From assembly GCA_010202845.1 (NCBI GenBank), contig CP047921.1:210001-242000 (forward strand): DNA of 32,000 nucleotides, read 5' to 3'. The position numbers and the translations under genes are program-made. The notes under the pieces were generated by a model. It worked only from the letters and a program-made list of their open reading frames with translations, was not told where the DNA came from and ran no database searches. Each line of letters opens with the position of its first letter. Position 1 is the stretch's first letter. This DNA comes from Candidatus Saccharibacteria bacterium oral taxon 488 (GTDB lineage: Bacteria; Patescibacteriota; Saccharimonadia; Saccharimonadales; Saccharimonadaceae). Positions 2,651 to 31,210 of this stretch are shown here, piece after piece.

Positions 2651-2867
2651 AGGATGTGTGGTTATTAGTGTGTGCAAGCTGATCAAATAGTGTCGCTAAA
2701 AAATCCCAATCAATTACGGAGTGTTTTTCAGTGAGGCGAGCCATGGCAAAACAAAGTACGTCTAACGATTCTGCGACATCTGTTTTGTTTGGTGCGAATC
2801 TGTAGATATCAATAATCTCACGAGCAATGATTGCCTGGTGTATCTGATGGTTCTGAGTACTATCCAT
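2589..2867 (-). CDS. Hypothetical small helical protein (92 aa) in an AT-rich cassette
   Basis: The ORF-track start at 2915 is replaced by the ATG at 2867 (MDSTQNHQIHQ...). On the minus strand that ATG is preceded by TGCTACACT-aatatc, the same leaderless promoter layout seen at 12 other genes. Confidence 0.6.
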   Translation of the reverse strand: MDSTQNHQIHQAIIAREIIDIYRFAPNKTDVAESLDVLCFAMARLTEKHSVIDWDFLATLFDQLAHTNNHTSFSDIEKLYQRITSLIPDPDS

Positions 2868-2882
2868 GATATTAGTGTAGCA
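2868..2882 (-). promoter_or_regulatory. extended -10 promoter abutting the start codon (leaderless)
   Basis: The minus strand reads TGCTACACT (2882-2874), a 6-nt spacer aatatc, then the ATG at 2867. Confidence 0.6.
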
Positions 2883-2956
2883 TACCGTATCTTCTATTAA
2901 ATGATAAGAATACATATTTCTAAATAATTTATTTTCTCAAAACTACTTGAATTTTT

Positions 2957-2985
2957 ATAGTACCTTGTATAACATAGTACTATGT
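2957..2985. promoter_or_regulatory. Candidate operator: perfect 14-bp palindrome ACATAGTACTATGT plus a direct ATAGTAC repeat, overlapping the ABC/PadR operon promoter
   Basis: ACATAGTACTATGT at 2972-2985 is its own reverse complement and ends where the -10 TATAAT (2985-2990) starts. ATAGTAC also occurs at 2957-2963, and on the minus strand at 2857-2863. Confidence 0.55.
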
Positions 2986-2990
2986 ATAAT
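2985..2990 (+). promoter_or_regulatory. -10 box (TATAAT) of the ABC-PadR-PspC operon
   Basis: TATAAT at 2985-2990, AAGGAG at 2999-3004 and the ATG at 3011 imply a short SD-containing leader. No convincing -35 is present. Confidence 0.5.
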
Positions 2991-3010
2991 GAAAATGCAA
3001 GGAGTATAGT

Positions 3011-4300
3011 ATGAGGAGAATCGACATCATTAAGCGGGCGGGGCGGAATCTTCGCCAGTCAAAGGGTCGGACAATTTTGACATCGCTGGCGATTTCGGTC
3101 GGGGCGTTTACGATTGGCTTGGCGCTGATGGCTGGCGAGGGTGGCCGTTTGTATACCAATAGCATAGTCGATGCGGCTGGTGACAAGAAAGTGATTATGG
3201 TTGGTAAAAAAGTTGAATCCGAAAAGAAGGATCAATTACCAGAATATGGCAATTCGGCAGAAGAAGCTGACAAAAATAAAGCATCGGCGGCGCGCAGCAA
3301 ATATGTGCTCAACGACAAGGACTTGGAAAAAATCCGACAAACGCCGCATGTAAAAACGGTAACACCAGCATATTCAACTGATGGCGTGGCCTATGCCAAG
3401 AGCTCGGCGAATGGTAAGAAATTTGCGCTGACTGTGGCTGTTAAAATGGACAGTACTCGGGCAGAATTGGCGGCAGGGTCACTGGAAGGTTTCATGCCAA
3501 AGCCGGGTGAGATTATCATCCCGGAGGCTTATGTCAAGCAACTGGGCTTCAAGGACGCGCAGTCGGCAATTGGTCAGACGATAACCTTGGGTGTGCGTAG
3601 CGCAGCGCGGGGCGGCAATGTCGCCAAAGAGGTGTCGTTCAAGATTGCGGCGGTGGACAAAAAATCAGACACCATTTTGTTTTATGAACCAATGCTGAGA
3701 ATTTCGACGGCTGATGCTAAAGCTATTTACGAATTCAGCCATAATAAGAGTCAGCCACATCAGTATTCAACGGCGATTGCTTTGGTGGATGACGAGAAAA
3801 ATGTTGATGCTGCTAAAGATGTGATTGGCAAAGACTATAACGCGTACTCAATTCAGGATATTCGGAAGGCGCTACTAACGATGGTTAATGTAGCGCAGGT
3901 GGCACTGGCAGGATTCGGCGGCTTGGCGCTGCTCGCCAGTGTATTCGGGATTATTAACACTATGTACATTTCGGTACTGGAGCGAACTAGCCAAATTGGC
4001 TTGATGAAGGCGTTGGGGATGCGCGGCCGCGATATTGGTAAATTATTCCGCTACGAGGCGGCATGGGTTGGTTTGCTGGGTGGTTTGATTGGCGTCGGAC
4101 TGGCAAGTTTGGTGACGCTGCTGAATCCAGTAATTACCAGTGCCTTAAAATTAGGCGTTGGCACGAATCTTCTAGTAATTAATCCGCTGCAAATCGGACT
4201 GTTGGTAATCGGACTGGTGGTGATGGCAATAATTTCTGGCTGGTTGCCAAGCCGCAAAGCAACAAAATTAGACCCAATTGAGGCGTTAAGGACGGAATAG
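3011..4300 (+). CDS. ABC transporter permease, MacB/FtsX-like (large extracytoplasmic domain between TM1 and TM2, C-terminal FtsX-type 3-TM bundle)
   Basis: The N-terminus RNLRQSKGRTILTSLAISVGAFTIGLAL is typical of MacB-type permeases. A soluble domain of about 270 aa follows, then the C-terminal TMs with GLMKALGMRGRDIGKLF and PSRKATKLDPIEALR. SD AAGGAG lies 6 nt upstream. Confidence 0.9.
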   Translation: MRRIDIIKRAGRNLRQSKGRTILTSLAISVGAFTIGLALMAGEGGRLYTNSIVDAAGDKKVIMVGKKVESEKKDQLPEYGNSAEEADKNKASAARSKYVLNDKDLEKIRQTPHVKTVTPAYSTDGVAYAKSSANGKKFALTVAVKMDSTRAELAAGSLEGFMPKPGEIIIPEAYVKQLGFKDAQSAIGQTITLGVRSAARGGNVAKEVSFKIAAVDKKSDTILFYEPMLRISTADAKAIYEFSHNKSQPHQYSTAIALVDDEKNVDAAKDVIGKDYNAYSIQDIRKALLTMVNVAQVALAGFGGLALLASVFGIINTMYISVLERTSQIGLMKALGMRGRDIGKLFRYEAAWVGLLGGLIGVGLASLVTLLNPVITSALKLGVGTNLLVINPLQIGLLVIGLVVMAIISGWLPSRKATKLDPIEALRTE

Positions 4301-6667: not shown

Positions 6668-6676
6668 TGCTACACT
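6668..6676 (+). promoter_or_regulatory. extended -10 box TGCTACACT upstream of uppP
   Basis: The same 9-mer occurs at two other promoters in this window. It is followed by a 5-codon mini-ORF (ATG 6683...TAA 6700) and AGGGAG (6688-6693) 10 nt before the uppP GTG. Confidence 0.45.
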
Positions 6677-6703
6677 GAAGGGATGATAGGGAGCTATTAA
6701 GTA

Positions 6704-7546
6704 GTGGCGTGGTGGCAAGCGATCATCCTCGGTATTGTTGAAGGCGTGACAGAGTTTCTGCCGGTTTCTTCGACGGGACATTTGACGATCGTCGAGAAGT
6801 TGATGGGGATGAGAATTGATGATTCGAGTCTGACGGCGTTCACGGCAGTAATTCAGGTCGGCGCGATCTTGGCAGCGATTATCTATTTCTGGAGCGATAT
6901 CTGGCGGGTGCTAAGCGCGTGGTGGCGCGGTCTGTGGTGGAAGCGGGCGCGACGACAGTTTGATTATGTGTATGGCTGGGCGATTATCATCGGTTCGGTG
7001 CCGATCGCAGTGATTGGACTACTGTTTAAGGATCAGGTCGAGACGGTGCTGCGTAGTTTGTGGTTTGTGGCGGTGGCGTTGATCGGCTGGAGCCTGGTGA
7101 TGTGGTGGGCTGATAAGCGTTCAGAAAAGGCCAGTCACCGCAGCGAGCAGCAAACGACGTGGCGAGATACGCTGGCGATTGGTGTGGGGCAGTGCCTGGC
7201 CTTGATACCGGGTATCAGTCGGTCGGGAGCAACGATCTCGGTGGGGCTGCTGCGGGGATTTGACCGAGTGACGGTGACGAAGTTGAGCTTTTTCCTCGGT
7301 ATCCCGGCGCTGGTGGCGGCTGGGCTGCTGGAGATGCTGACCGCCTCAAAGCACATTGCCGGCGGTGTCGGCTGGACAGCGACGGGGCTTGCGACAATTG
7401 TGTCGTTTGTGGTCGGCTACCTTGCGATATCGTGGCTGCTTAAGTTTGTGGCGCGGAATGACTTCTCGTTATTTATTTGGTATCGAGTCGGGCTGGGCGG
7501 CCTGATCATTGTTTTGCTGATGAGCGGCGCGATCAGTGCGGTTTAG
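6704..7546 (+). CDS. uppP: Undecaprenyl-diphosphate phosphatase (BacA/UppP)
   Basis: Hallmark motifs EGVTEFLPVSSTGHL and PGISRSGATI in an 8-TM profile. GTG start. Confidence 0.95.
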   Translation: MAWWQAIILGIVEGVTEFLPVSSTGHLTIVEKLMGMRIDDSSLTAFTAVIQVGAILAAIIYFWSDIWRVLSAWWRGLWWKRARRQFDYVYGWAIIIGSVPIAVIGLLFKDQVETVLRSLWFVAVALIGWSLVMWWADKRSEKASHRSEQQTTWRDTLAIGVGQCLALIPGISRSGATISVGLLRGFDRVTVTKLSFFLGIPALVAAGLLEMLTASKHIAGGVGWTATGLATIVSFVVGYLAISWLLKFVARNDFSLFIWYRVGLGGLIIVLLMSGAISAV

Positions 7547-7784: not shown

Positions 7785-7832
7785 CACGGTAAATAGGCGT
7801 ATAGCAAGATCAAATAGGGGATATAATACAAT

Positions 7833-8060
7833 ATGAACGAGCGCTCAGACAAGACATATGCGAGTCGTAAACTGGTAATATGTTTGTTTATCGTCACGAT
7901 ACTAATCATTCTACTGCTGTGGTGGTGGCCATGGGGCGGCGGCAATCGCTTTTACAAGGGGGTTCGTCCAGATCAGATTAGCTTACGCCAGAGCAATGGC
8001 AAGGTGCAGTGGCAGTTTATGGACGGCGACTGGCAGGATATTGTCTCTCTTTCTGAATAG
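7833..8060 (+). CDS. N-terminal membrane-anchor fragment of the collagen-like protein, ending at an in-frame TAG
   Basis: TM helix LVICLFIVTILIILLLWWW, then GKVQWQFMDGDWQDIVSLSE, a paralogue of the internal linker of the downstream ORF. It is in the same frame as 8148-9806. Confidence 0.7.
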   Translation: MNERSDKTYASRKLVICLFIVTILIILLLWWWPWGGGNRFYKGVRPDQISLRQSNGKVQWQFMDGDWQDIVSLSE

Positions 8061-8063
8061 CGA

Positions 8064-8510
8064 GGTGATAAGGGCGAGAAAGGCGACAAGGGTGACAAAG
8101 GTGACACTGGTGAGGCTGGAGCTGCTGGTAAAGACGGTAAAAACGGTGTGAACACAGGGCAGCGTGGAGCCAATGGCCGTGATGGGGCGAATGGTAAAAA
8201 CGGTGCGACCGGGCCAAAGGGCGATACCGGCGCGACCGGTGCTCAGGGTCCAGCTGGTCCACGGGGCCAAAAGGGTGACAAGGGTGAGAAGGGTGATGCC
8301 AACGGTATCGTCGGTCCGGCTGGCCCACAGGGTCCCAAAGGTGACACCGGCCAGCAAGGACAAAAAGGTGACAAAGGCGATGCCGGTGCTAAAGGCGAAA
8401 AGGGAGACGCTGGTGCTAAAGGTGAAAAGGGTGAAAAAGGTGACAAAGGTGACACTGGTGCAGTGGGCGCCCAAGGCCAAAAGGGCGATGCCGGTAATGA
8501 TGGACGAGAG
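8064..8510 (+). repeat. Collagen run 1: 49 Gly-X-Y triplets with two single-residue interruptions
   Basis: Counted by hand from the translation: 10 triplets upstream of the called start, then 16, then 23. Confidence 0.9.
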
Positions 8511-9806
8511 ATTGAGCTACAGAAAACTGCACTATATATACAGTGGCGCTACAGAGGCGATGCCACTTGGCATAACCTCATCGCATTGTCTGATCTAAAG
8601 GGCCCGAAGGGTGACAAAGGTGATACCGGTCCACAGGGTGCAACGGGTGCCCAGGGCGCACAAGGTGCTCAGGGGCCTGCCGGTGCCCAAGGCCAAAAGG
8701 GTGAAACTGGCCCTGCCGGCCCGCAAGGCCCAGCTGGTCCCCAAGGCCAAAAAGGCGAGAAAGGTGAAAAAGGTAATGATGGCCCACAAGGTCCTGCAGG
8801 TCCTCAGGGAGCCAAAGGTGATACCGGTCCAATCGGTCCCGCCGGCCCGCAAGGACTCAAAGGCGCTAAAGGTGATACTGGAGCGACAGGCGCTCAAGGT
8901 CAAAAAGGCGACAAGGGCGACACCGGCCCAGTAGGTCCTCAGGGCCTGCCCGGCCCCCAGGGTATACCAGGTGTTAAGGGGGATAAAGGTGACACTGGTC
9001 CAGCGGGGCCACAGGGTCTTCAGGGTGCTAAGGGTGACAAAGGCGAGCCAGGGGCTAAGGGTGAAACTGGCCCTGCCGGCCCACAAGGGGCCAAGGGAGA
9101 TGCCGGTGCACCTGGAGCTAAAGGTCCGAAGGGCGACGCTGGTCCCCAAGGACAAAAAGGTGATAAAGGTGAAAAGGGTGAAGCTGGTGCAAATGCAACA
9201 GTCAATGTGACAAATAGTACTCAGCCATGTTCGACCAAACTCAACGTTACGGGCAATGGTACACCAAATATTGGACTGACGTTTACCGGATCAAATATTC
9301 CGGCTGGTGGGTCAATTGGTCAGGTACTGATGAAAAAATCGGCGGCAGATTGTGATGTTGCGTGGAGAAGTTTGCCGCAAGAAACGATGTTTGCTGGCTC
9401 GATCGGTGTCGGTAATGGTAACATCACGGCGGTGAATATTAATGCTGACACTTATACAGCCATTCCGATGACAACGATCACCACGAATACCGGCGGTGGC
9501 ACCTGGGATCCAGTGAATCACACGTATACCATTCCAAGCGACGGTGTATATTTCATCCGTTCCAGTATTCGTACCGTTGACAACTCGCCGATGCGTAACA
9601 TTTACCAAATTGTTAATGATGTGAACGGTGATCGTCCAGAGGGCACGTGGTCGTCTAATCAAGCCGGTGTTCGTCGTTCGACACTGCCGTATTCACGGAT
9701 GATGCGGGCCACGGCTGGCACCAAACTAAAGTTGATCGTCGTATCAGACCTCCAGAGTGTGCAACTCAGCGACGCAAGCCTGACAATCACCAAGCTTTCA
9801 AACTAG
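8148..9806 (+). CDS. Collagen-like triple-helix repeat protein with a globular C-terminal domain; the coding signal actually begins at 8061, directly after the TAG
   Basis: Long Gly-X-Y runs ([19 protein letters not shown]...). The GTG at 8148 is only the first start-like codon, and ten further GXY triplets lie between 8064 and 8147. No signal peptide is present in this piece. The C-terminal ~200 aa are non-repetitive and look beta-rich. Confidence 0.85.
8601..9194 (+). repeat. Collagen run 2: 66 uninterrupted Gly-X-Y triplets
   Basis: Counted by hand, from GPK at 8601 to GAN ending at 9194. Confidence 0.9.
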
Positions 9807-9836: not shown

Positions 9837-9845
9837 TGCTACAAT
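9837..9845 (+). promoter_or_regulatory. extended -10 box TGCTACAAT, 6 nt before the serS ATG (leaderless)
   Basis: TGCTACAAT-gatacc-ATG(9852), with no SD. Confidence 0.65.
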
Positions 9846-9851
9846 GATACC

Positions 9852-11147
9852 ATGTTAGATATTCGCTTTATTCGAGATAACGCCGAGGCAGTGCAGACTG
9901 CGGCGAAACACAAGGGGTGTGACGTGTCTATTGCGACATTGTTGCAATTAGACGACGAGCGTCGTGAGGCGCAGCGGCAGGTTGATGAGTTGCGCCAGCA
10001 GCGTAATGAGATTGCTGCGCAGATGAAGGGAGGCAAGCCTGAGCCGGGTCTGATTGAGCAGGGCAAGGCGATCAAGGCTAAGCTGAGTGGGCTCGAGACT
10101 CGGCTGAGCGAGATCGAGGAACGATACACGGCACTACTAAAGCAGGTTCCTAATATGCCGCACGCCGATGTACCAGTTGGTCTGAGTGAGGATGAAAACG
10201 TTGAAGTAAAGGTCGTCGGTGATATTCCAACCTTTGATTTTGCGCCGAAAAATCACTACGAAATCGCCGAGGCAAAAGGCTGGCTCGATAAAGAGCGGGC
10301 CGCCAAGGTTGCTGGTGCTCGTTTTGCTTATATCATGGGGGATTTGGTGTTGTTGCAACAGGCGATTATCCAGTTTGTGATCACATCTCTCACGAACCCA
10401 GCGGTGATCAAAGAGATCGCCGAAAAGGCTGGCCTTGATGTCAATACAAAACCATTCACCCCAGTGCTGCCGCCACTGATGATCCGCACCGAACCGTATG
10501 ATCAGATGGATCGCCTCCAGCCGAGTGACGATCGCTACAAGATCGAGGGCGAGGAATTATGGCTCCAGGGAAGTGCTGAGCATGTGCTCGGCAGCATGCA
10601 CGCGGGTGAGATCTTTGACGCCAAGCAGTTACCGCTACGATACTTGGGTTTTGCGACTAGCTTTCGAAAAGAGGCGGGGACCTATGGCAAGGATATGGAG
10701 GGGCTGATCCGGATGCATCAGTTCGACAAGCTCGAGATGGAGAGTTTCACCGAGGCTAAGGACAGCTATAGCGAGCATCTCCTATTTATTGCCATCCAAG
10801 AGTGGTTGTTGGCCCAGCTGAAGTTGCCATACCACGTGCTGATGAAATGTACGGCCGATATTGGTAAGCCAAATGCGCGCGGTGTTGACATGGAAGTCTG
10901 GCTACCGGGTCAGGACAAGTACCGCGAGACGCATACCGCTGACTACATGACTGATTATCAGGCACGCCGCTTGATGACGCGGGTGCGTACGGATAACGGG
11001 GTTGAATTGATCCACACGAATGACGCGACGGCCTTTGCGCTGGGGCGCTGTATGGTGGCGATTATTGAGAATTACCAGACCGCCGAGGGTGATGTAGTGG
11101 TGCCAGAAGTACTTCGTCCATATATGAATGGCCGCGAGATGATATAA
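9852..11147 (+). CDS. serS: Seryl-tRNA synthetase
   Basis: N-terminal coiled-coil arm, then the class II motifs FRKEAGTYGKDMEGLIRMHQFDKLE and GRCMVAIIENYQ. Confidence 0.97.
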   Translation: MLDIRFIRDNAEAVQTAAKHKGCDVSIATLLQLDDERREAQRQVDELRQQRNEIAAQMKGGKPEPGLIEQGKAIKAKLSGLETRLSEIEERYTALLKQVPNMPHADVPVGLSEDENVEVKVVGDIPTFDFAPKNHYEIAEAKGWLDKERAAKVAGARFAYIMGDLVLLQQAIIQFVITSLTNPAVIKEIAEKAGLDVNTKPFTPVLPPLMIRTEPYDQMDRLQPSDDRYKIEGEELWLQGSAEHVLGSMHAGEIFDAKQLPLRYLGFATSFRKEAGTYGKDMEGLIRMHQFDKLEMESFTEAKDSYSEHLLFIAIQEWLLAQLKLPYHVLMKCTADIGKPNARGVDMEVWLPGQDKYRETHTADYMTDYQARRLMTRVRTDNGVELIHTNDATAFALGRCMVAIIENYQTAEGDVVVPEVLRPYMNGREMI

Positions 11148-11165
11148 TGGAGTCTAGGAGGGTAT

Positions 11166-11408
11166 ATGGCACTGACGAACGATGACAAGCAATGGATCAA
11201 GGGCGCGATCGCTGATGGTGTGGTTGAAGGCAGACTACAGGCACTAACGAACGACATTAAAGAGATATACGATGTTATTTACGGTAAGCCGAACAAATCA
11301 TTTATGAGCGCCAGCTTTGCCAAAATGTCGTCGAAAGAAAAGCTGCTCGTGATTAACGAAGAATTACTAAAAATGGCGAAGGACGCGGGTGTTGTTTTGC
11401 CGCGCTAG
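11166..11408 (+). CDS. Hypothetical small protein (80 aa)
   Basis: Strong AGGAGG just upstream of the ATG. It is tightly packed between serS and hpf. I recognise no family. Confidence 0.6.
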   Translation: MALTNDDKQWIKGAIADGVVEGRLQALTNDIKEIYDVIYGKPNKSFMSASFAKMSSKEKLLVINEELLKMAKDAGVVLPR

Positions 11409-17089: not shown

Positions 17090-17096
17090 AGAAACT

Positions 17097-18543: not shown

Positions 18544-18550
18544 ATTTGTT

Positions 18551-19882: not shown

Positions 19883-20422
19883 TTATCCCTGATACACCTC
19901 AGGCTTCAACACTCCGATATACGGTAGGTTTCGGTATTGTTGGCGGAAATCTAGGCCGTAGCCGACGACGAATTCGTTAGGAACTGACAGGCCGACGTAA
20001 TCGGCGGTAACGTTGGCGATACGTCGTTCGGGTTTGTCGAGTAGTGAGCAGACTTTGATTGAGGCCGCGCCGCGACTGGCGAATAATTCTAGCAATTTTT
20101 CTAGCGTTCGGCCGGTATCGACGATGTCTTCGACCAGCAAAATATGCCGCCCAGTAACGTCGCTATCAATGTCTTTGAGGATAGTGACCGCGCCGGATGA
20201 TTCAGTTGCGTTGCCGTAGCTAGAGACGTCAATGAAATCGATTTCCAGGTAACAGTCCATCGCTCGCACTAGATCAATCATAAACGGTGCTGCACCGCGC
20301 AGTACACCGATGACCAGCGGGTTTTTGTCACGATACTCTGCCGTCAGCTCTCGGCCCAGCTGCGCCACCGCATTGTTAATTTGCTCAGTAGTCACGAGGA
20401 TTTTAGCAATGTCTTGATTCAT
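19883..20422 (-). CDS. hpt: Hypoxanthine(-guanine) phosphoribosyltransferase
   Basis: PRPP-binding motif [14 protein letters not shown], plus FVVGYGLDF and typical length (179 aa). Confidence 0.95.
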
Positions 20423-20429
20423 TAGGATA

Positions 20430-20438
20430 AGTATAACA
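20430..20438 (-). promoter_or_regulatory. extended -10 box TGTTATACT, 7 nt before the hpt ATG (leaderless)
   Basis: The minus strand reads TAA(murI stop)-T-TGTTATACT-tatccta-ATG, so the 17-nt intergenic gap is entirely promoter. Confidence 0.65.
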
Positions 20439-20439: not shown

Positions 20440-21069
20440 TTAGCTAGCAAAATCGCTAATCCGCTTGGCGATAATTGCAGTAGGTTCAAGAATGCGGCAT
20501 TGCGGGAAAAGGCGTTGTAACCGTCTCTTAAGCGCCAGATAATGCGTGCAGCCTAGAACAATAACATCGCTGCCGTCCGCAACACTGGTCGATACTTCAT
20601 CAAGCACAATATCGTCGGCCAAACCTTGATCAATCATCTGCGCCCACGCACGGGTGTCTGGCGTGTCGATGCGAACGCCAGTAGCATATTCACTGATAAG
20701 CGCACGCAGACGCTGGCTGTGTTTGGTGGCGTTTGTCGCCAGCATGGTAATATGATGTGATTTGGTCAAGATGACGGCCGATTTGATCATCGGTTCAAAG
20801 CCCATAAAGCATACGTCTGTGTAACGTTGCCGCAGCGAGCCAATCGCGTTGGTCGTGGCGGTATTGCATGCTATAACAATAATGTCGCATGATAGCAGCG
20901 GCTGAATGGCAGCATCGGTTAGCGTGATAATCTCTTCCGGTAAACGATTGCCGTACGGTGCGTGCTCGCGGTCGATCGCCGTGATGTACGAATGCTGCGG
21001 CAGTAATTTTTTCAGCCTCTTTGCTACTAATTTGCCGCCAGTTCCCGTATCAAATATGCCGATCTTCAT
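20440..21069 (-). CDS. murI: Glutamate racemase (Asp/Glu racemase family), short form of 209 aa
   Basis: GIFDTGTGG and both catalytic-Cys motifs, IACNTAT and LGCTHY. It is shorter than the usual ~250-290 aa. Confidence 0.8.
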
Positions 21070-21075
21070 ACAAAA

Positions 21076-21084
21076 AGTATAGCA
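21076..21084 (-). promoter_or_regulatory. extended -10 box TGCTATACT, 6 nt before the murI ATG (leaderless)
   Basis: The minus strand reads TGCTATACT-ttttgt-ATG(21069). Confidence 0.65.
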
Positions 21085-21088: not shown

Positions 21089-21097
21089 TGTTACAAT
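21089..21097 (+). promoter_or_regulatory. extended -10 box TGTTACAAT, 7 nt before the prfB ATG at 21105 (leaderless)
   Basis: TGTTACAAT-ggtatcc-ATG. The ATG at 21096 lies inside the -10 box and is therefore unlikely to be used. Confidence 0.6.
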
Positions 21098-21104
21098 GGT
21101 ATCC

Positions 21105-22184
21105 ATGCAACCGCTAAAAAAACGTATCCAAACCCTGCAATCAGAAGTAGAACAGGCCAAGGCGGCGCTGGATTTTGCGGCACTGGAGCAGGAGCTGGCG
21201 GCGCTGGACGAGCGACTCAATCAGCCGGAGATTTGGCATAATCCGGACGAGGCGCAGGTGCTGGCGAAAAAGGCGGCTAGCTTGCGCCAGACAGTCGAGC
21301 CGTGGCAGACGCTCAGCGTGCAACTCATGGATATCGCTGAGTTGATGGAGCTGGGCGATGATGATCTGCTGCCGGAGTTTGAGGCGCAGGTGGCAGCGCT
21401 GGAGCAGGAGTTTACTCAGCGCAAGACTGATCTACTGTTCAGCGGCCCGTACGACAACCGCGAGGCGGTAGTGCGAATTTCGGCGGGCGTAGGCGGGCTG
21501 GATGCGCAGGATTTTGCGGCGATGTTGGAGCGGATGTATCTACGCTGGGCGGAGAAGTCGGGGATGAAAGCCGACACGCTGGAGCGCTCGACCAATGATG
21601 ATGCGGGGATAAAGACGGCGGTGTTGGAAATTTCTGGGCCGTTTGCCTATGGAAAACTGCGCTCAGAAAATGGCGTGCATCGGCTGGTGCGCCTCAGTCC
21701 GTTTAACGCTGATAATTTGCGCCAGACTAGCTTTGCACTGGTGGAGGTGCTGCCAAAGATCGATACGCCGGATGAAATTTCGATTGACCCGAATGATCTG
21801 AGGATTGATGTGTATCGCTCGGGCGGCAAGGGTGGTCAGGGCGTGAACACCACTGACTCGGCGGTGCGGGTGACGCACGTGCCGACGGGAATCACGGTGG
21901 CGATTCAGAACGAGCGTTCGCAGATTCAGAACAAAGAAACAGCGCTGAAGATTTTGCGATCCAAGTTGCTGGCGATGAAGCTGGAGCAACACGCCGAAAC
22001 GCTGTCTGATCTCAGGGCCGGCGAGTCAGCCAACTGGGGCAGCCAGATCAGAAATTACGTCCTGCATCCGTACACGCTGGTCAAGGACACCCGCACCAAG
22101 CACGAGAACCGCAACGCCCAGGGCGTGCTGGACGGGGATGTTGATGAGTTTATGACGGCTTATTTGCGTGAATCGCGCGGCTGA
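21105..22184 (+). CDS. prfB: Peptide chain release factor 2, uninterrupted ORF without the programmed +1 frameshift
   Basis: SPF tripeptide (RLSPFNA) and the GGQ motif (SGGKGGQGVNTTDSAVR). There is no in-frame stop in the first 40 codons. Confidence 0.93.
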   Translation: MQPLKKRIQTLQSEVEQAKAALDFAALEQELAALDERLNQPEIWHNPDEAQVLAKKAASLRQTVEPWQTLSVQLMDIAELMELGDDDLLPEFEAQVAALEQEFTQRKTDLLFSGPYDNREAVVRISAGVGGLDAQDFAAMLERMYLRWAEKSGMKADTLERSTNDDAGIKTAVLEISGPFAYGKLRSENGVHRLVRLSPFNADNLRQTSFALVEVLPKIDTPDEISIDPNDLRIDVYRSGGKGGQGVNTTDSAVRVTHVPTGITVAIQNERSQIQNKETALKILRSKLLAMKLEQHAETLSDLRAGESANWGSQIRNYVLHPYTLVKDTRTKHENRNAQGVLDGDVDEFMTAYLRESRG

Positions 22185-22990
22185 CGGAAGACAGCAATGG
22201 TGATCATCACGGCAAAGGCGATAAGGCTGATGACCATGACGGACAGGAAATGTACGCCAAATGGCCAAGTAGTTTGCCTGACGAGGACGTCGATCGGATA
22301 TTTTCGGTTGGTGTCATCGCCGATGATGTAATAGAGCCACGCGCATGTACCCACCAGAAAGCACACCATGGCGAGGCCGTACCATACCAATGCTGACGTG
22401 TGGCGTGCGAGCCACTTGTTACTATCGGTAATTGCCTTGTTCTGCCAGCGGTTGGTATTGATAAGTGCATAAAGCGGCAAGGCGAGACAGCCGGTAGCCA
22501 GAAGCAGTCCAGTCGCAGTGTACATGATATATACGAAGATACCGCTGTGTTGTGCCATGTCTTGTAGTAGCGTGACGTGGGGTGTGAGGAATAGGCATAT
22601 AAGCGTGGCGCCAAGCGATATGACCATAAGTAGCGCCAATAGTCGCAAACCAATCTCCAGTATCCTGTAGGTGCGCCGGGCAGGTTGCGCTGACTCATCA
22701 GGTGATTGCCCCACGAGCTGTCGTAGCCCACGTCCGAGGTAATATATACCCCAGACGATGCTAATAAATAGGAGTAGACCGCCAGTCAGGAAGAGCGGCC
22801 AGCGTAGCGCGTTAGCGGTTTTTCGAGGTGCTGCGCAGCATGACCAGGTGTCTTGCGGTCGCGCCGCATCAAACGTATCTGGCAGGAATGGCACGCTGAG
22901 ATTACTGATAATCATTAACCCGACTCCGATGATACTGAGGGCGATAAACATGATGCTGAGGCGATTGAGCAATGTGGTTGAAGGTTTCAT
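22160..22990 (-). CDS. Hypothetical polytopic membrane protein (276 aa)
   Basis: About 6-7 hydrophobic helices. Leaderless promoter layout at the start. The 3' end overlaps prfB by 25 nt (convergent). Confidence 0.7.
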   Translation of the reverse strand: MKPSTTLLNRLSIMFIALSIIGVGLMIISNLSVPFLPDTFDAARPQDTWSCCAAPRKTANALRWPLFLTGGLLLFISIVWGIYYLGRGLRQLVGQSPDESAQPARRTYRILEIGLRLLALLMVISLGATLICLFLTPHVTLLQDMAQHSGIFVYIMYTATGLLLATGCLALPLYALINTNRWQNKAITDSNKWLARHTSALVWYGLAMVCFLVGTCAWLYYIIGDDTNRKYPIDVLVRQTTWPFGVHFLSVMVISLIAFAVMITIAVFRQPRDSRK

Positions 22991-22996
22991 ATATCT

Positions 22997-23005
22997 AGTG
23001 TAGCA
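22997..23005 (-). promoter_or_regulatory. extended -10 box TGCTACACT, 6 nt before the ATG at 22990 (leaderless)
   Basis: The minus strand reads TGCTACACT-agatat-ATG. Confidence 0.65.
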
Positions 23006-23042: not shown

Positions 23043-23051
23043 TGCTATACT
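23043..23051 (+). promoter_or_regulatory. extended -10 box TGCTATACT, 7 nt before the ftsE ATG (leaderless)
   Basis: TGCTATACT-agtggaa-ATG(23059), with a possible -35 TTCGCA 18 nt upstream. Confidence 0.65.
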
Positions 23052-23058
23052 AGTGGAA

Positions 23059-23742
23059 ATGATTTTGTTAGATAGGGTTACCAAAACATATGGCAAGGAC
23101 AACAAGCCGGCCTTGAATCGGGTGAGTGTTCATGTCAAGCCTGGCGAGTTTGTGATTTTGGTTGGGACATCAGGCGCGGGGAAGTCGACGCTGCTCAAGC
23201 TGCTGACCCGCGAGGAAAAGCCGACTGGCGGCAAGATTGTCGTCGGTGGGATTGATTACGACACGCTCAAGGACAAGCATATCCCGCTGCTCAGGCGCAA
23301 AATCGGTGTGGTGTTTCAGGATTTCAAGCTGTTGCCGAATCGGACGGTGTTTGAGAACGTGGCCTTCGCGCTGGAGATTGCCGGTATGACCAATCGTGAG
23401 ATCAAATCAACGGTGCCAAAGGTGATCGAGCTAGTGGGCCTAAAAGGCAAGGAAAAGAATTTCCCGAACCAGCTGTCTGGCGGTGAGCGCCAGCGGGTGG
23501 CAATTGCCCGGGCGGTGGTACGCCAGCCAAAGATTTTGATCGCTGACGAGCCGACCGGTAACCTCGATCCCAAGCATAGCTGGGATATTGTGCGCTTGCT
23601 GGAAAAGATTAACAAATACGGCACCACGGTGCTACTGACGACGCACAATGTCGATATTGTGAACAAGCTCAAGCGCCGGGTGATCACCATTGATCACGGT
23701 AAAATCACCTCTGATCAAGCCAAGGGGAGTTACAAACAATGA
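23059..23742 (+). CDS. ftsE: Cell division ATP-binding protein FtsE
   Basis: Walker A GTSGAGKST, signature LSGGERQR, Walker B ILIADEPTG. It is directly coupled to ftsX by an ATGA overlap. Confidence 0.93.
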   Translation: MILLDRVTKTYGKDNKPALNRVSVHVKPGEFVILVGTSGAGKSTLLKLLTREEKPTGGKIVVGGIDYDTLKDKHIPLLRRKIGVVFQDFKLLPNRTVFENVAFALEIAGMTNREIKSTVPKVIELVGLKGKEKNFPNQLSGGERQRVAIARAVVRQPKILIADEPTGNLDPKHSWDIVRLLEKINKYGTTVLLTTHNVDIVNKLKRRVITIDHGKITSDQAKGSYKQ

Positions 23743-24784: not shown

Positions 24785-24814
24785 TTGACGTCCATATGTC
24801 GCTTGTGCTAAAAT
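24785..24814 (+). promoter_or_regulatory. Promoter TTGACG-18 nt-TAAAAT with a TG extension, 8 nt before the ATG at 24823
   Basis: TTGACG at 24785-24790 and TGCTAAAAT at 24806-24814. Confidence 0.65.
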
Positions 24815-24822
24815 AAAAAGCA

Positions 24823-25956
24823 ATGAAGATACGGTCCACCACACCAGTTTCGACATCACGAGCCACACGGGCAGCTCTCGTGGCGGTTAGTGCTGTTGTT
24901 TTGGGCGCTGGCGTGTTCCAGCTCGGCCCACACGTATTCGCGCGTGACTATGAAGCGGAAATTAACGCTCTCAACCAACAGGCGCAACAGGCGCAGAACG
25001 AGGCCAATCGTCTCGGGACGATGGCAGCGACGCTGGAGGAGGAGCTGGGGCGCATTAACGCGCAGATTGATTCAATCCGAACAGAAATTGCCAAGAGTCA
25101 GCAAAAGCACGACGCATTGGTTGCGGAAATTGCTAAGAACAAGCTAGCGATTGAAAAAAACCGCAAGGTCATGGGCAAAATCTTGTCAGATATTTACCTC
25201 GATGATCAGATTTCGCCGCTTGAGATGCTGGCTAGCTCCAAGTCGATCGGTGATTATGTCGATAAGCAGGAGCAACGTAGTAGCTTGCGATCGTCGCTGA
25301 ACGATAAGATCAAGGAAATTAAGGCGCTGCAGGCTAAACTGGAAGAGAATAAAAAGTCAGTTGAGAATGTGCTCAAAGACCAGAAGGCTCAGCAGACACA
25401 ACTAGCGTCCAAGCAGGCAGAGCAGGCCAAGCTGGTTAACGATACCAAGAATGACCAGAATGCCTATGCAGCCTTGGCAACGCAGCGGAATAACCAAGCA
25501 GCGAAACTGCGCGAAGAGCAGGCGGCGGCTAACCGGCGAGCGCTTGGCGGGGTGTCAATCCCGGGTGGTATCCCGGGTGGTGGCGGCTATCCAGGCGTCT
25601 GGGCGAATGCACCACTGGATGCTTACGTCGATCCATGGGGCCTATATACGCGCGAATGCGTGAGCTATGTGGCCTGGAAGATCCACAGTACCGGTCGGTT
25701 TGTGCCACACTTTGGTGGGGCTGGTAACGCTAATCAGTGGCCATCAACAGCGGCGCGATACGGCATCCAGAGCGGTTCGACACCAAAGGCTGGCGCAGCA
25801 GCGGTTATGAATGTTGGCTATTATGGACACGTGATGTACGTCGAGTCGGTTAATGGTGACGGCACAATTACGGTCAGCGACTATAACTTGGCGTGGGACG
25901 GTCTGTACCGAAAGTATACGCGTTTAGCCTCGGGCCTAACCTACGTGTATTTTTAA
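24823..25956 (+). CDS. Secreted coiled-coil plus CHAP-domain peptidoglycan hydrolase (PcsB-like architecture)
   Basis: Signal sequence (AALVAVSAVVLGAGVF), a heptad-rich Q/A/E/K region of about 190 aa, a Gly-rich linker (GGIPGGGGYPG), then a CHAP domain with catalytic Cys (RECVSYVAWK) and His (GHVMYVESV). Confidence 0.85.
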   Translation: MKIRSTTPVSTSRATRAALVAVSAVVLGAGVFQLGPHVFARDYEAEINALNQQAQQAQNEANRLGTMAATLEEELGRINAQIDSIRTEIAKSQQKHDALVAEIAKNKLAIEKNRKVMGKILSDIYLDDQISPLEMLASSKSIGDYVDKQEQRSSLRSSLNDKIKEIKALQAKLEENKKSVENVLKDQKAQQTQLASKQAEQAKLVNDTKNDQNAYAALATQRNNQAAKLREEQAAANRRALGGVSIPGGIPGGGGYPGVWANAPLDAYVDPWGLYTRECVSYVAWKIHSTGRFVPHFGGAGNANQWPSTAARYGIQSGSTPKAGAAAVMNVGYYGHVMYVESVNGDGTITVSDYNLAWDGLYRKYTRLASGLTYVYF

Positions 25957-26003: not shown

Positions 26004-26009
26004 TACAAT
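26004..26009 (+). promoter_or_regulatory. -10 box TACAAT, 6 nt before the ATG at 26016 (leaderless)
   Basis: tgtgTACAAT-agatat-ATG, located immediately after the terminator. Confidence 0.5.
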
Positions 26010-26015
26010 AGATAT

Positions 26016-27194
26016 ATGACAGAGCAACGGAGGGTAGGAAGGCGGGCTCGCTTGTTTTTGGGCGGGCTGCTGATTGCGATTGTGAGTTTTGCGGCCGGGA
26101 CGCGGTCGGATCTGATTATGGCGCAGGTCGGGTCGCTGTTTGGCCTCAGGACGGCGACGGGGTCGCTGGATTTATCAACAGTGCAGCGCGTGTACCGTGA
26201 GCTAAAGGCTCATTATGACGGTACGTTGGATGAGCAAGCACTTACACGTGGGGCGGCGCGCGGTATGGTGGCGGCGACGGGCGATCCACACACGGCGTAT
26301 ATGGATCCGGATGAAGCCAAGGAGTTTGAAAAGAGCTTGTCGGGCAATATTGGTGGCGGTATCGGGGCGGAAATTGCCAAGCGGCATAACGTGCCGACGA
26401 TCATCCGGCCGCTCAAAAATAGCCCAGCTGAAAAGGTGGGCATCAAAGCCGGCGATGTCATCGTCAAGGTTAATGACACGGTGGTGACTGATATGCCGGT
26501 TGATCAAGTGGTGCAGCGCATTCGCGGCGATGTTGGCACGACGGTCAAGTTGGTATTGTCGCGTGGTGGCGAACGTAAAGACGTGACAGTGACGCGCGAG
26601 AAAGTCGTCGCGCCGGCTGCCGAGTGGAAGATTGATGGTGAGATCGGTATTTTGACAGTGAGCCGTTTCAATGATGACACCGGCAAGCAAGCGCGCCAGG
26701 CCGCTGAGGAGTTTCGCTCAGCAGGTGTCAAGAAAGTTATCCTCGACCTCAGGGGAAATCCTGGTGGCACGGTGGCGGCCGCGCAGGCGTTAGCAGGGCT
26801 GTGGCTGAATAATCAGGTGGTGATGACCCAACGGCGTGGCGAGCAGGTTATCTCGACGGAGAAATCGACCGGCCAGCCGCTTCTCGGTGATATCAAGACG
26901 GTTGTGTTGATTAACGGTGGTAGCGCCAGCGCCAGCGAGATCGTAGCGGGGGCGCTCAAGGATTATGGCAAGGCAACGCTGGTCGGCGAAAAAACCTATG
27001 GCAAGGGCAGTGTGCAGCGGCCGATTGATCTGGCGGACGGCTCGGTTCTAAAAGTGACCGAGGCGCACTGGTATACGCCGCATGGCAAGAATATTGACAA
27101 GTCGGGTATCGAGCCGGATGTCAAGGTCGAGATGACGACTGGGGCGGCGGATAATGGGCATGACCCACAGTTAGAAAAAGCAAAGAGTGTCTAG
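26016..27194 (+). CDS. S41-family C-terminal processing peptidase with a PDZ domain
   Basis: N-terminal anchor, PDZ (GIKAGDVIVKVND), catalytic Ser region INGGSASASEIVAGAL and Lys region GEKTYGKGSVQ. Confidence 0.9.
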   Translation: MTEQRRVGRRARLFLGGLLIAIVSFAAGTRSDLIMAQVGSLFGLRTATGSLDLSTVQRVYRELKAHYDGTLDEQALTRGAARGMVAATGDPHTAYMDPDEAKEFEKSLSGNIGGGIGAEIAKRHNVPTIIRPLKNSPAEKVGIKAGDVIVKVNDTVVTDMPVDQVVQRIRGDVGTTVKLVLSRGGERKDVTVTREKVVAPAAEWKIDGEIGILTVSRFNDDTGKQARQAAEEFRSAGVKKVILDLRGNPGGTVAAAQALAGLWLNNQVVMTQRRGEQVISTEKSTGQPLLGDIKTVVLINGGSASASEIVAGALKDYGKATLVGEKTYGKGSVQRPIDLADGSVLKVTEAHWYTPHGKNIDKSGIEPDVKVEMTTGAADNGHDPQLEKAKSV

Positions 27195-27720: not shown

Positions 27721-27993
27721 CTAGCCGACGCAAACCTGAGTTCGTCGCTCGGTTTTGCCAGTGAACCTGGTTTTCTTGACTCGCTTAAAGGTGACGACAC
27801 CAGACTTAGCAGCGTGGATTGTGTAGTTGCGGCTCATGTATGCGCCGTCGCCAGCGACCTTGGTAGCGCCTGTTTGGCGGACGAGTACTTCGCCGGCGTT
27901 AACTTTTTGGCCGCCGAAACGCTTGACGCCGAGGCGTTGGCCAGGGTTGTTGTGGATGTTTTTACTTGAGCCACCAGCTTTGACTTTTGACAT
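27721..27993 (-). CDS. rpmA: 50S ribosomal protein L27
   Basis: GGSSKN...RLGVKRFGGQKVNAGEVLVRQTG is the L27 signature. AAGGAG lies 5 nt upstream of the ATG. Confidence 0.93.
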   Translation of the reverse strand: MSKVKAGGSSKNIHNNPGQRLGVKRFGGQKVNAGEVLVRQTGATKVAGDGAYMSRNYTIHAAKSGVVTFKRVKKTRFTGKTERRTQVCVG

Positions 27994-28029
27994 TGAAACT
28001 CCTTAAATTTTCTAAACCTAATCCGTACC

Positions 28030-28058
28030 AGTATAAGTGACGGCTGATAAAAAGTCAA
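28030..28058 (-). promoter_or_regulatory. rpmA promoter TTGACT-17 nt-TATACT (with leader and SD)
   Basis: On the minus strand, TTGACT is at 28058-28053 and TATACT at 28035-28030. The leader of about 30 nt contains AAGGAG. Confidence 0.7.
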
Positions 28059-28784: not shown

Positions 28785-30081
28785 TCCGCAGGATCAGTAA
28801 TTCGCGGGCGACGACCTGGTCGGGGCGGCGATAGATGAGCGGGATGTGGTTGAGTTGGTGATAGCCAAGTTTTTGGAGATTTTTTATTAGCGGTAAATGA
28901 GTGGCCCGGCCGGACGCGTCGTACCACGCTGGCACGGCGATGCATAGCGGCGTGTTTGGGGCTAGCTGCGGACGGATATTAGTGAGGAAGCCGGTGATAA
29001 TGTGATTACAGTTGCCGGCAACTTCTGCTAGTTTTTGAGGTGCGGGCGGCGCGGAAAAGGGCTGCCCGAGGTAGGTTTCGCAGACGACGGCAGCGAGGTG
29101 TGCGCCGTTTAGCCAGCGGTGCGTGGTGGCGTCGGCTTGATGGATATCAATGACGTTGCCAGGCGCGGTGAACGTTGATTGCAGCCACGATAGATTCTCG
29201 GCGGTGTAGTCAACCATTTTCTGGCTGAGGTCGGTGCCGACGACGTCGTAACCAGCGAGCAGCGCTTCTTGCAGGACGGTGCCGGTGCCGCAGAAGGGGT
29301 CGAGGATTGTCACGGCAGCTCGGCTTCCAGCCGTCTCCTCCACGTCGAATGCATCCGGCAACGCCGTCCGCAGAACCATCGACTTATCGGAGAGGCTGGA
29401 ATCCGAGCTTGTCACAGAATTGTCGTGTGGTCTTTGACGGGTCAGCGATCCAGCACCCAGCGCTAAATTCAGCATAATCTGCGCCAATTTGGGCGGCAGC
29501 ATGCCAACGAAGGCGTCGCGCTTGGGGCGATGGCGGTCGCGGCGGGTATAGGCGGTGATATTCTGGACGCCGCGGCTCTCGGCAATGATCAGGCGGCCGC
29601 CGGTCGTTTTAACAAGCAGCAGCTCGACTTTATATGGCGAACCACCGAGCTTATTATTGTGTGCGGTGGCAGTGGAGAGAGCGGGCTGATCGTTGGGGAT
29701 GAGACGGAGGCTGGTCTCAGATTTTTTGAGGGATGATTTGAGGATCAGACCGGTTTTTTGGACATCGCGGGCGCCAACAGCCAGGTTATGGGCGCTGAGA
29801 CCGAGGGTGATTTTATGCGGCGAGTGCGCCCACTTGGCGTGATAATGCTGGGTGATGAAGCGCGAGGCAGCGAGGAGTGAGGCCTTATCAGTGCGGCTGG
29901 CCGGTAGCTCGGTGATCACTTCGGCGCATTTGATGGTGCCGCCCAGGGTAGTGATGTCGAAGTCAGATGTTTGAACTTCGGCAAACTGCTGGCTGATGCG
30001 ATGAACGCAGTCCGCGCCAAAAACCGCCGCAAGTTCGGCGAGCGAGATCTCTGGCTGGCGACCAAGCAGGGCGATATACAT
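28762..30081 (-). CDS. SAM-dependent methyltransferase, UPF0020/Trm11-like (putative RNA methylase), 439 aa
   Basis: Motif I ILDPFCGTGTVLQEA, then the acidic DVVGTD. Upstream of these lies RRDRHRPKRDAFVGMLPPKLAQIMLNLA, typical of this family. The start is set at 30081 (MYIALLGRQPEISLAEL) from the leaderless promoter layout. The ORF-track start at 30216 would overrun the divergent gene. Confidence 0.75.
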   Translation of the reverse strand: MYIALLGRQPEISLAELAAVFGADCVHRISQQFAEVQTSDFDITTLGGTIKCAEVITELPASRTDKASLLAASRFITQHYHAKWAHSPHKITLGLSAHNLAVGARDVQKTGLILKSSLKKSETSLRLIPNDQPALSTATAHNNKLGGSPYKVELLLVKTTGGRLIIAESRGVQNITAYTRRDRHRPKRDAFVGMLPPKLAQIMLNLALGAGSLTRQRPHDNSVTSSDSSLSDKSMVLRTALPDAFDVEETAGSRAAVTILDPFCGTGTVLQEALLAGYDVVGTDLSQKMVDYTAENLSWLQSTFTAPGNVIDIHQADATTHRWLNGAHLAAVVCETYLGQPFSAPPAPQKLAEVAGNCNHIITGFLTNIRPQLAPNTPLCIAVPAWYDASGRATHLPLIKNLQKLGYHQLNHIPLIYRRPDQVVARELLILRTTRAPDG

Positions 30082-30087
30082 GGTTTG

Positions 30088-30096
30088 ATTATAGCA
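30088..30096 (-). promoter_or_regulatory. extended -10 box TGCTATAAT, 6 nt before the ATG at 30081 (leaderless)
   Basis: The minus strand reads TGCTATAAT-caaacc-ATG. Confidence 0.65.
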
Positions 30097-30105
30097 AAAA
30101 CTGCG

Positions 30106-30114
30106 TGATATAAT
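30106..30114 (+). promoter_or_regulatory. extended -10 box TGATATAAT, 7 nt before the ATG at 30122 (leaderless)
   Basis: TGATATAAT-tgacgat-ATG. Confidence 0.65.
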
Positions 30115-30121
30115 TGACGAT

Positions 30122-31210
30122 ATGGTGTCGAAAGGGATACAGCAGTTTTTAGAGGCACTCAAGTCACCGCGGACGATCATGAGTATCGTGACGCTGGCGG
30201 TGCTGGTACTGATCATTTTTCTGTCGCGTGCGGAACTGATGCGGGCGTGGGAGCTGCTCGGCCGGGCAAATATCTGGCTATTGATGTTGCTGCTGCCGTT
30301 TCAAATTATCGTGTATTTCGCGGGCGGCGAGATGATTTTTGCCTATCTTCGCGACAAAAAACTGATCGGGCATATCTCACGGTTTGAGCAGACGCGGATT
30401 GCACTGGAGCTGAATCTGGTTAATCACATTTTTCCGTCAGGCGGCGTCAGCGGTATTTCCTACACGACGTGGCGGATGCACAAGCTCGGCGTCAGCTCGG
30501 CGCGCTCGACCTTTGCCCAGGTGATCCGTTACGTGACAGGCTTTCTGTCGTTGATGGTGCTGCTGATTGTGGCGGTGTTAATCTTGTCAATTGACGGGCA
30601 GGTGAATCGCTACATCGTGACGTCAAGTTTCTTCTTGGTGCTGGTGGTGCTAGCGCTAACATTTGGGCTGATTTTTATGTTCTCGTCACGAAGGCGTATG
30701 CACAACACGGCGGTGCGGATGTCGCGGCTGATCAACGCGGTAGTGCGGTGGGCGACACTGGGCAAGATCAAGCGGCTGCTGGTTTCGACGAAAATCGAAG
30801 CGTTTTTTGCTGAGATGCATGATGATTTTGTGGAGCTATCGGAGCACCGGCGCCTACTCATCAAGCCGCTGGTCTGGGGTGCAATATATGCCATTTTCGA
30901 TGTGTTAATGTTCATCGTAGCCTTTTGGGCGCTGGGCGTGTCGGTCAATCCAGCGGTGCTGATCATCGGCTACGGCGTGGCGGGGCTGGCTAGTCTGGTA
31001 GCCTTTACGCCGGGCGGTGCGGGCGTGTACGAAGCGATTATGATCGTTTTCTTGAGTATGACCGGTGTGGCGCCGGACGTTGCCATCGCTGGGATTGTGC
31101 TGACGCGGGTGATTTTACTAACGGGGACAATTGTCTTTGGGTATATGTTCTACCAGCACGCGCTGATCAAATATGGGCGGCCGGATGACGACGATGGCGC
31201 CGCGGTTTAG
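30122..31210 (+). CDS. UPF0104 / lysylphosphatidylglycerol-synthase-TM-region-like (flippase-like) membrane protein
   Basis: About 8 TM helices and the family motif near the C-terminus, FTPGGAGVYEAIMIVFL. Confidence 0.8.
   Translation: MVSKGIQQFLEALKSPRTIMSIVTLAVLVLIIFLSRAELMRAWELLGRANIWLLMLLLPFQIIVYFAGGEMIFAYLRDKKLIGHISRFEQTRIALELNLVNHIFPSGGVSGISYTTWRMHKLGVSSARSTFAQVIRYVTGFLSLMVLLIVAVLILSIDGQVNRYIVTSSFFLVLVVLALTFGLIFMFSSRRRMHNTAVRMSRLINAVVRWATLGKIKRLLVSTKIEAFFAEMHDDFVELSEHRRLLIKPLVWGAIYAIFDVLMFIVAFWALGVSVNPAVLIIGYGVAGLASLVAFTPGGAGVYEAIMIVFLSMTGVAPDVAIAGIVLTRVILLTGTIVFGYMFYQHALIKYGRPDDDDGAAV

Follow-up and report, generated by a model that had tools for sequence, protein, structure and literature searches.

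A -10 box, mostly of the extended type, beside the start codon of thirteen genes points to leaderless mRNAs in a Saccharibacteria genome

The -10 motif adjacent to open reading frames (ORFs) of the Deinococcus-Thermus group is the described system that comes closest to the arrangement reported here (de Groot et al. 2014; Zhong et al. 2025, PMC12340547). In Deinococcus radiodurans the sequence TANNNT, located 6-7 bp before ORFs, has been shown experimentally to be the -10 region for leaderless mRNAs; the box binds RpoD, cannot be replaced by a ribosome-binding site and needs its positions 1, 2 and 6 (PMC12340547). The genes concerned lack a Shine-Dalgarno (SD) sequence, other genes carry GGAG, TACACT is a frequent variant of the box, and the motif, which affects about a third or more of the genes, also reveals annotated starts that are over-extended. 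Group C of the gene finder GeneMarkS-2 has a related definition, in that a Pribnow box lies 6-8 nucleotides (nt) from the start of operon-first genes and an SD at the same distance elsewhere; group C is reported mainly for Actinobacteria and Deinococcus-Thermus (PMC6028130). Here we describe a 32,000-nt stretch of the genome of Candidatus Saccharibacteria bacterium oral taxon 488 (contig CP047921.1, positions 210,001 to 242,000; hereafter the window, with a GC content of about 52%), in which a -10 box, usually of the extended type, precedes the ATG of 13 genes by 6-8 nt and very probably gives rise to leaderless mRNAs. The prfB product of the window shares 97-98% identity with its counterparts in oral Saccharibacteria (TM7) of human oral taxon 488, a Nanosynbacter-like group, and the exact protein matches bear GWK78_ locus tags on a contig of 853,179 bp.

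As regards the box, its spacing and the SD of other genes, the group C definition fits the window exactly, and the NCBI Prokaryotic Genome Annotation Pipeline (PGAP) calls all 13 starts as proposed. The likeness to Deinococcus-Thermus comprises the same TANNNT 6-7 bp before the start, TACACT as a frequent variant, the lack of an SD at these genes but not at others, the exposure of over-extended starts and the share of about a third or more of the genes; the differences are that the box of the Saccharibacterium is usually extended by TGn (11 of 13 sites), that it is known here from sequence alone, and that its bearer is an ultrasmall epibiont of the candidate phyla radiation (CPR, Patescibacteria) with a 0.85-Mb genome. 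Mycobacterium tuberculosis and M. smegmatis likewise mix leaderless and SD-led genes, with the leaderless genes first in their operons, and possess short leaderless ORFs upstream of genes that resemble a mini-ORF described below (Cortes 2013, Shell 2015, via PMC6028130, PMC5397173). Mycobacterial leaderless starts, however, comprise GTG as well as ATG, unlike the 13 genes and every boxed orthologue considered here, and the GC content and lineage of Mycobacterium are far from those of the Saccharibacterium. Archaeal leaderless genes (GeneMarkS-2 group D) are transcribed from the start codon, as is proposed here, and accompanied by internal genes with an SD, but their promoter is a TATA box and B recognition element about 26 nt upstream, whereas that of the window is a bacterial -10 box at a distance of about 10 nt. 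The Bacteroidetes type of non-SD motif before all genes (group B) does not describe the window, where internal genes carry an SD. The leaderless -10-adjacent architecture is already well known from Actinobacteria and Deinococcus and is implicitly handled by the gene finder of NCBI. No description of leaderless genes was found in the full-text literature on Saccharibacteria, Patescibacteria, candidate phyla radiation and TM7, and within the literature searched the architecture is newly documented for Saccharibacteria and apparently for other CPR.

All 13 strings of box, spacer and ATG proposed in a first-pass annotation of the window are present verbatim at their proposed positions. Aligned on the hexamer, the sites read T (11/13), G (11/13), c (7/13) and then T (13), A (13), T or C (7 and 5), A (13), A or C (8 and 5) and T (13), with T1, A2, A4 and T6 of the hexamer invariant and the extension TG at -15/-14 in 11 of the 13, as had been claimed. 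The spacer is 6 nt at six sites, 7 nt at another six and 8 nt at one; the start codon is always ATG, and the base preceding it is a pyrimidine in 10 of 13 cases. The first-pass annotation saw no SD in these spacers, and an SD core, defined as AGGA, GGAG or GAGG at 3-14 nt from the start, indeed occurs before none of the 13 starts as against 12 of the 16 other genes. At 11 sites the best -35 match reaches at most 4/6, a good -35 being present only at 18551 (6/6) and 24823 (5/6).

The first site belongs to a 92-aa hypothetical protein on the minus strand (PGAP QHU93625.1), for which TGCTACACT at 2874-2882 and a 6-nt spacer precede the ATG at 2865-2867 (whole element 2865-2882). This gene is without an orthologue in the comparative set introduced below, so that only the motif and the PGAP call speak for its start. 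serS follows TGCTACAAT and 6 nt (9837-9854, plus strand; QHU93633.1), and murD follows TGGTATAAT and 7 nt (17081-17099, plus strand; QHU93638.1); the murD box begins 1 nt past the stop of the upstream gene and would therefore be an internal promoter. The only full 12/12 two-hexamer promoter is that of a 439-aa hypothetical protein (18515-18553, plus strand; QHU93639.1), with TTGACA at 18515-18520, 17 nt, TATAAT at 18538-18543 and 7 nt before the ATG. hpt is preceded by TGTTATACT and 7 nt (20420-20438, minus strand; QHU93640.1), its box lying within the 17-nt gap behind murI and being kept in 61/61 orthologues. The CHAP-domain protein (24806-24825, plus strand; QHU93645.1) has TGCTAAAAT with the single 8-nt spacer and a -35 TTGACG at 18 nt. 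The S41/PDZ protease has TACAAT and 6 nt (26004-26018, plus strand; QHU93646.1), is located immediately downstream of a terminator-like hairpin and T-run, and retains the box in 69/71 orthologues.

The remaining six sites form three back-to-back pairs. The murI-like racemase gene, with TGCTATACT and 6 nt (21067-21084, minus strand; QHU93641.1), is the divergent partner of prfB, with TGTTACAAT and 7 nt (21089-21107, plus strand; QHU93642.1), and the two ATGs are 35 nt apart. A 276-aa membrane protein starting at 22990, with TGCTACACT and 6 nt (22988-23005, minus strand; QHU93643.1), faces ftsE at 23059, with TGCTATACT and 7 nt (23043-23061, plus strand; the 227-aa form in NCBI), across 68 nt. 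A methyltransferase-domain protein starting at 30081, with TGCTATAAT and 6 nt (30079-30096, minus strand; QHU93650.1), is the divergent partner of a flippase-like membrane protein starting at 30122, with TGATATAAT and 7 nt (30106-30124, plus strand; QHU93651.1), across 40 nt. Distances of 35-68 nt between the ATGs leave no space for a further intergenic promoter. In two of the pairs the opposite-strand boxes are only 4-9 bp apart (4 bp at 21069/21105). In all three pairs each gene has its entire upstream promoter region within the neighbouring gene, and competition between the promoters of a pair is probable. Both promoters of one pair could not hold polymerase simultaneously.

The arrangement is highly non-random, and this holds when gene calls are left aside. 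Alone, the motif TGNTANNNT has 77 sites in the window against 44.9 +/- 6.4 in shuffles, and the composite of TGNTANNNT, 6-8 nt and ATG has 15 matches, where 500 shuffles of the window that preserve dinucleotides gave 2.7 +/- 1.7, with a maximum of 9; ORFs of 92-453 codons are opened by 11 of these 15 matches. In a histogram that makes no use of called genes, an ATG with at least 100 open codons stands at a spacer of 6-8 nt behind 10 of the 77 motifs, compared with 0-1 at each other spacer from 0 to 40 and with 0-1 for five permuted control motifs. A second sample consists of 80 loci, each extending 10 kb to either side of prfB, from 80 different Saccharibacteria genomes, in which prfB is 83-98% identical and which cover 12 of the 13 genes. 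Of the 3856 extended boxes in this sample, 543 are followed by an ORF-opening ATG at a spacer of 6-8 nt, and each other spacer from 0 to 40 gives 0-61, mostly fewer than 20; the matches fall into 27 gene clusters, of which about 15 are outside the 13 of the window. A scan of motif-to-ATG distance, of the kind that the first-pass annotation had suggested for the whole genome, yields a sharp peak at 6-8 nt in both samples. In an E. coli control (100 kb, 132 first-ATG ORFs) the extended box is found nowhere except for one match at 5 nt, and there is no TANNNT peak but a clear SD peak at 5-8 nt. A classical two-hexamer promoter scan of the window was uninformative (17 sites where 14 were expected, and 28 where 14 were); it recovers only about 5 of the 13 sites, because most of the boxes come without a -35.

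The ATG beside the box is in each case also the annotated start. The first-pass annotation had replaced seven starts of the longest-ORF track (2915 by 2867, 17055 by 17097, 18515 by 18551, 21021 by 21105, 23005 by 23059, 26001 by 26016 and 30216 by 30081), and all seven new positions equal the PGAP starts; it is therefore the naive longest-ORF track that is corrected and not the public annotation. All 13 proteins are identical letter for letter to PGAP products (QHU93625 to QHU93651). Solved homologues agree with these starts, in that residue 1 of MurI aligns to residue 1 of the chains 1b73 and 2jfx, residue 1 of FtsE to residues 1-2 of solved FtsE, residue 1 of HPRT, the product of hpt, to residues 4-5 of solved HPRT, residue 2 of the prfB product to residues 2-5 of RF2, and residues 3-4 of MurD to residues 8-11 of solved MurD. 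According to these alignments the proteins lack no N-terminal extension and could hardly start further downstream, and most orthologues have no in-frame start upstream of the boxed ATG. Comparison at the protein level thus points to the ATG beside the box as the true translation start.

Gene calls from sources other than NCBI (ENA, Logan, JGI) are often over-extended in close relatives, with MurD at 467-469 aa and FtsE at 245 aa as opposed to NCBI lengths of 453 and 227 aa, and the small protein of the first site (window 2589-2915) at 108 or 111 aa. The 245-aa FtsE is found only in ENA gene calls, and longer versions of MurD and of the methyltransferase-domain protein were absent from the protein collection searched by exact match. 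Leaderless starts are probably widely mis-called in metagenome bins of Saccharibacteria. Leaderless first genes would account for the over-extension by longest-ORF and some automated gene calls in these and other CPR bins, and the box offers a simple rule for mending such starts. PGAP itself uses GeneMarkS-2+, and leaderless group C is modelled by GeneMarkS-2 (PMC6028130).

Across the 12 genes that the 80 loci cover, the TANNNT box stands 6-8 nt before an in-frame ATG in between 9/10 and 80/80 orthologues, and every orthologue with a box starts with ATG; a few apparent spacers of 4-5 nt are mis-registered overlapping matches. For prfB the box is present in 79/79 orthologues, with TGn in 78, and for ftsE in 80/80, with TGn in 70. 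For serS it stands 6 nt (in one case 4 nt) before the ATG in 46/46 orthologues that are 53-97% identical in protein and that have 28 distinct upstream sequences. The methyltransferase-domain gene keeps it in 57/57, down to 42% amino acid identity. The arrangement is therefore retained although some orthologues are only 42-60% identical in protein, and the sequence upstream of the box is completely different between lineages. Among 74 murD orthologues, 62 have the box without an SD, 12 have an SD of the GGAG/GGGAG type without the box, and none has both or neither; in the 12 the SD lies directly behind the upstream gene. As far as sequence comparison can tell, murD is a natural swap experiment between box and SD. 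A pyrimidine precedes the ATG in 257 of 341 distinct orthologue sequences, which fits the usual preference of transcription for a pyrimidine at -1 and a purine at +1, and hence the A of the ATG as initiating nucleotide.

It is proposed that the boxes are promoters for the housekeeping sigma factor (sigma70/sigmaA type) with an extended -10 element, TGnTAyAmT, and mostly without a usable -35. The TG extension is contacted by sigma region 3 in double-stranded DNA and is not an RNA signal. RNA polymerase starts about 7 positions (range 6-9) downstream of the hexamer, and with spacers of 6-8 nt the +1 position would therefore coincide with the A of the ATG or miss it by no more than 1-2 nt. This is very probably where the exact transcription start lies, and the resulting mRNA would begin with AUG and have neither a 5' untranslated region nor an SD. 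To judge from E. coli, Mycobacterium and Deinococcus, the ribosome carrying initiator tRNA would bind the 5'-terminal AUG directly. Downstream genes of operons and a minority of first genes would instead use an SD 4-10 nt upstream or a stop/start overlap. We put the probability that the extended -10 boxes place the transcription start at or near the A of the ATG, and so produce leaderless mRNAs, at roughly 0.85.

The relation of the two modes of initiation to operon position is looser than first thought. The first-pass annotation had read the boxed genes as leaderless, with which every available computational test agrees as to box, spacing and starts; its further statement of a clean separation between the two modes according to operon position went too far. 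The SD strings and ATGA overlaps that it listed for other genes are present, and operon-internal genes do carry an AGGAG-type SD without a box. If a gene is counted as first when it is divergent or lies over 40 nt from its upstream neighbour, and otherwise as close-coupled, 11 of 17 first genes are leaderless versus 2 of 12 close-coupled genes (Fisher p = 0.02), so that the statistical association stands; 11 of the 13 boxed genes are first genes in this sense. Exceptions occur both ways. murD (17097) and hpt (20422) are leaderless 16-17 nt behind the stop of a preceding same-strand gene, for which reason their boxes would act as internal promoters. Conversely, short SD leaders of about 10-30 nt are found at the first genes 3011, 6704 (uppP), 11901 (secA), 27993 on the minus strand (rpmA) and probably 28101. 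Two of these, 3011 and rpmA, had been counted as operon-internal, which is not the case; each stands first, behind a promoter of its own and a short leader with an SD. At 3011 (2981-3013, plus strand) TATAAT is separated from the ATG by 20 nt containing AAGGAG, and at rpmA (27991-28058, minus strand) TTGACT, 17 nt and TATACT are followed by a leader of about 30 nt with AAGGAG. A -10 box also lies 17-20 nt upstream of the SD-led starts at 3011 (TATAAT) and 11166 (TGATATAAT, overlapping the serS stop; 11140-11168), whose leaders would be only about 10-14 nt, little beyond the SD.

uppP combines elements of both modes. TGCTACACT and a 6-nt spacer (6668-6706, plus strand) precede the ATG of a five-codon mini-ORF that encodes MIGSY and ends with TAA at 6698-6700, 3 nt before the uppP GTG at 6704, which is the PGAP start (QHU93630.1); a GGGAG lies inside the mini-ORF. 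Mini-ORFs of 5-6 codons that end -1 to +3 nt from the uppP start occur in 29 related genomes (for example loci L009, L017, L021 and L035), with the three peptide versions MKGNF, MKGSSK and MIGSY, and uppP is directly leaderless in four other genomes. The mini-ORF may be a leaderless upstream ORF that feeds ribosomes to uppP by termination-reinitiation, or it may simply be an SD leader of 20 nt whose first three bases are AUG by coincidence. When other leaderless mini-ORFs next to long ORFs were looked for, the search returned uppP only, other matches being coincidental inside coding regions, and in the environmental set described below it gave no excess over controls.

Several points weigh against the leaderless interpretation. 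The conservation counts come from orthologous loci and are hence not independent events. With spacers of 7-8 nt some transcripts could have leaders of 1-3 nt, and murD and hpt may in addition be translated from an SD-less internal position on read-through transcripts. For the related N. lyticus TM7x, a 2025 promoter survey used 188 transcription start sites derived from RNA-seq coverage; the set is imprecise, and the survey noted an unusually variable distance from the -10 to the start site and did not discuss leaders (PMC12641261).

Longer transcripts are also the basis of the alternative that survives best, though we regard it as unlikely, namely that the boxes are real promoters yet a substantial share of the protein is made from mRNAs which arise by read-through or from a distal promoter and are served by reinitiating or scanning ribosomes. 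murD and hpt, with no terminator-like hairpin in the 16-17 nt that separate them from the same-strand stop, would allow this, murD is plainly operon-internal with an SD in 12 of the 74 genomes, and termination-reinitiation seems, from the mini-ORF next to the start of uppP, to be in use in the lineage. Seven of the 13 genes, however, are divergent first genes whose ATGs are separated by 35-143 nt from those of their partners, and they therefore have no same-strand upstream gene from which to be read through, 26016 lies behind a terminator-like hairpin, and internal initiation would be inefficient where no SD is present. A contribution of longer transcripts may apply to murD and hpt specifically.

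It is far less probable that TAnnnT is a non-SD ribosome- or S1-binding element in the mRNA, comparable to the A/U-rich regions of Bacteroidetes, and that transcripts begin further upstream. The motif does stand at an SD-like distance from the start codon, which the GeneMarkS-2 description names as a source of confusion (PMC6028130), but a general ribosome-binding site would precede all genes and the operon-internal genes have an SD and no motif. Furthermore, the conserved TG and the invariant T1, A2 and T6 match sigma contacts and no known RNA signal, a further promoter would not fit upstream in the back-to-back pairs, and the Deinococcus equivalent was bound by RpoD and was not replaceable by a ribosome-binding site (PMC12340547). 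That the pattern reflects chance, or AT-rich intergenic DNA with starts chosen to fit, is excluded by the controls even though seven starts were picked in the first-pass annotation partly for their fit to the motif. The 15 matches far exceed the 2.7 +/- 1.7 of the shuffles, no background peak appears in the start-agnostic histogram or with the permuted motifs, and E. coli gives a flat control. PGAP, which is independent of the first-pass annotation, and the N-termini of solved homologues both bear out the starts, and the arrangement is conserved in orthologues that are only 42-60% identical in protein.

Other features of the window adjoin these genes. A possible 14th leaderless start is that of a 75-aa ORF at 7833-8060 with one transmembrane helix, for which TATAAT and a short spacer of 5 nt precede the ATG at 7833 (7822-7835, plus strand). 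This ORF is in frame with an ORF of collagen-like Gly-X-Y repeats at 8148-9806; a single TAG at 8058-8060 stands between both, and repeat-coding sequence continues immediately beyond this stop. In other strains the N-terminal part has homologues of 58 to 386 aa, and this spread suggests a variable or pseudogenised surface protein. The murI-like racemase (20440-21069, minus strand), labelled hypothetical by NCBI, has 209 aa compared with 254-293 aa in solved MurI, and its C-terminal part seems to be missing. prfB (21105-22184) is a continuous ORF whose residues 2-355 align to residues 5-362 of RF2, and it is therefore without the programmed +1 frameshift found in many bacterial prfB genes. Scans for tRNA genes and Rfam families found neither in the window.

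The box signature is also found beyond the oral Saccharibacteria. A MurD homologue search returned only close oral TM7 relatives of at least 69% identity; distant MurD representatives from a 50%-identity protein library were aligned, and the alignment was used to retrieve 80 metagenome loci, from which 7 oral loci were removed to leave 73 non-oral contigs with 805 first-ATG ORFs of at least 100 codons. In these TGNTANNNT stands 6, 7 and 8 nt before the first ATG in 36, 27 and 14 ORFs, respectively, whereas most of the remaining spacers give 0-3 and spacers 9 and 10 give 10 apiece, and an SD peak at 4-8 nt is present alongside. On a contig of Ca. Amesbacteria (L141), 10 of the 25 ORFs have TANNNT at 6-7 nt; a contig of Ca. 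Levybacteria (L142) is among the non-oral loci showing the signature. Both lineages belong to the Microgenomates. The two peaks mean that the dual-mode architecture is not restricted to oral Saccharibacteria and reaches into other CPR lineages, albeit on small per-genome samples. That leaderless initiation from extended -10 boxes is a major, possibly ancestral, mode of expression in the CPR, beside the use of SD sequences, is a tentative proposal to which we give slightly less than even odds.

The CPR ribosome is reduced, with a short bS1 and a missing uL30, and if the pattern were true genome-wide it would link this reduced ribosome to a style of translation initiation. Prodigal-style annotations of metagenome-assembled genomes would then systematically over-extend first genes. 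In published work CPR ribosomes have a short bS1 and the anti-SD is lost in some Parcubacteria (PMC9297842), and CPR retain YchF, a factor linked to leaderless translation (PMC12641178). Saccharibacteria are now transformable with cassettes under native promoters, for which tuf and rpsJ promoter regions were borrowed (PMC10633639), and the finding guides the design of minimal cassettes, as a bare TGnTAyAmT box 6-7 nt from the ATG may suffice and first genes need no SD. It also raises the question of whether an expression grammar common to Saccharibacteria and their actinobacterial hosts is more than coincidence. Overall, a deep-branching, genome-reduced lineage with unusual ribosomes would join the heavy users of leaderless mRNAs, which bears on the question of whether this mode of initiation is ancestral.

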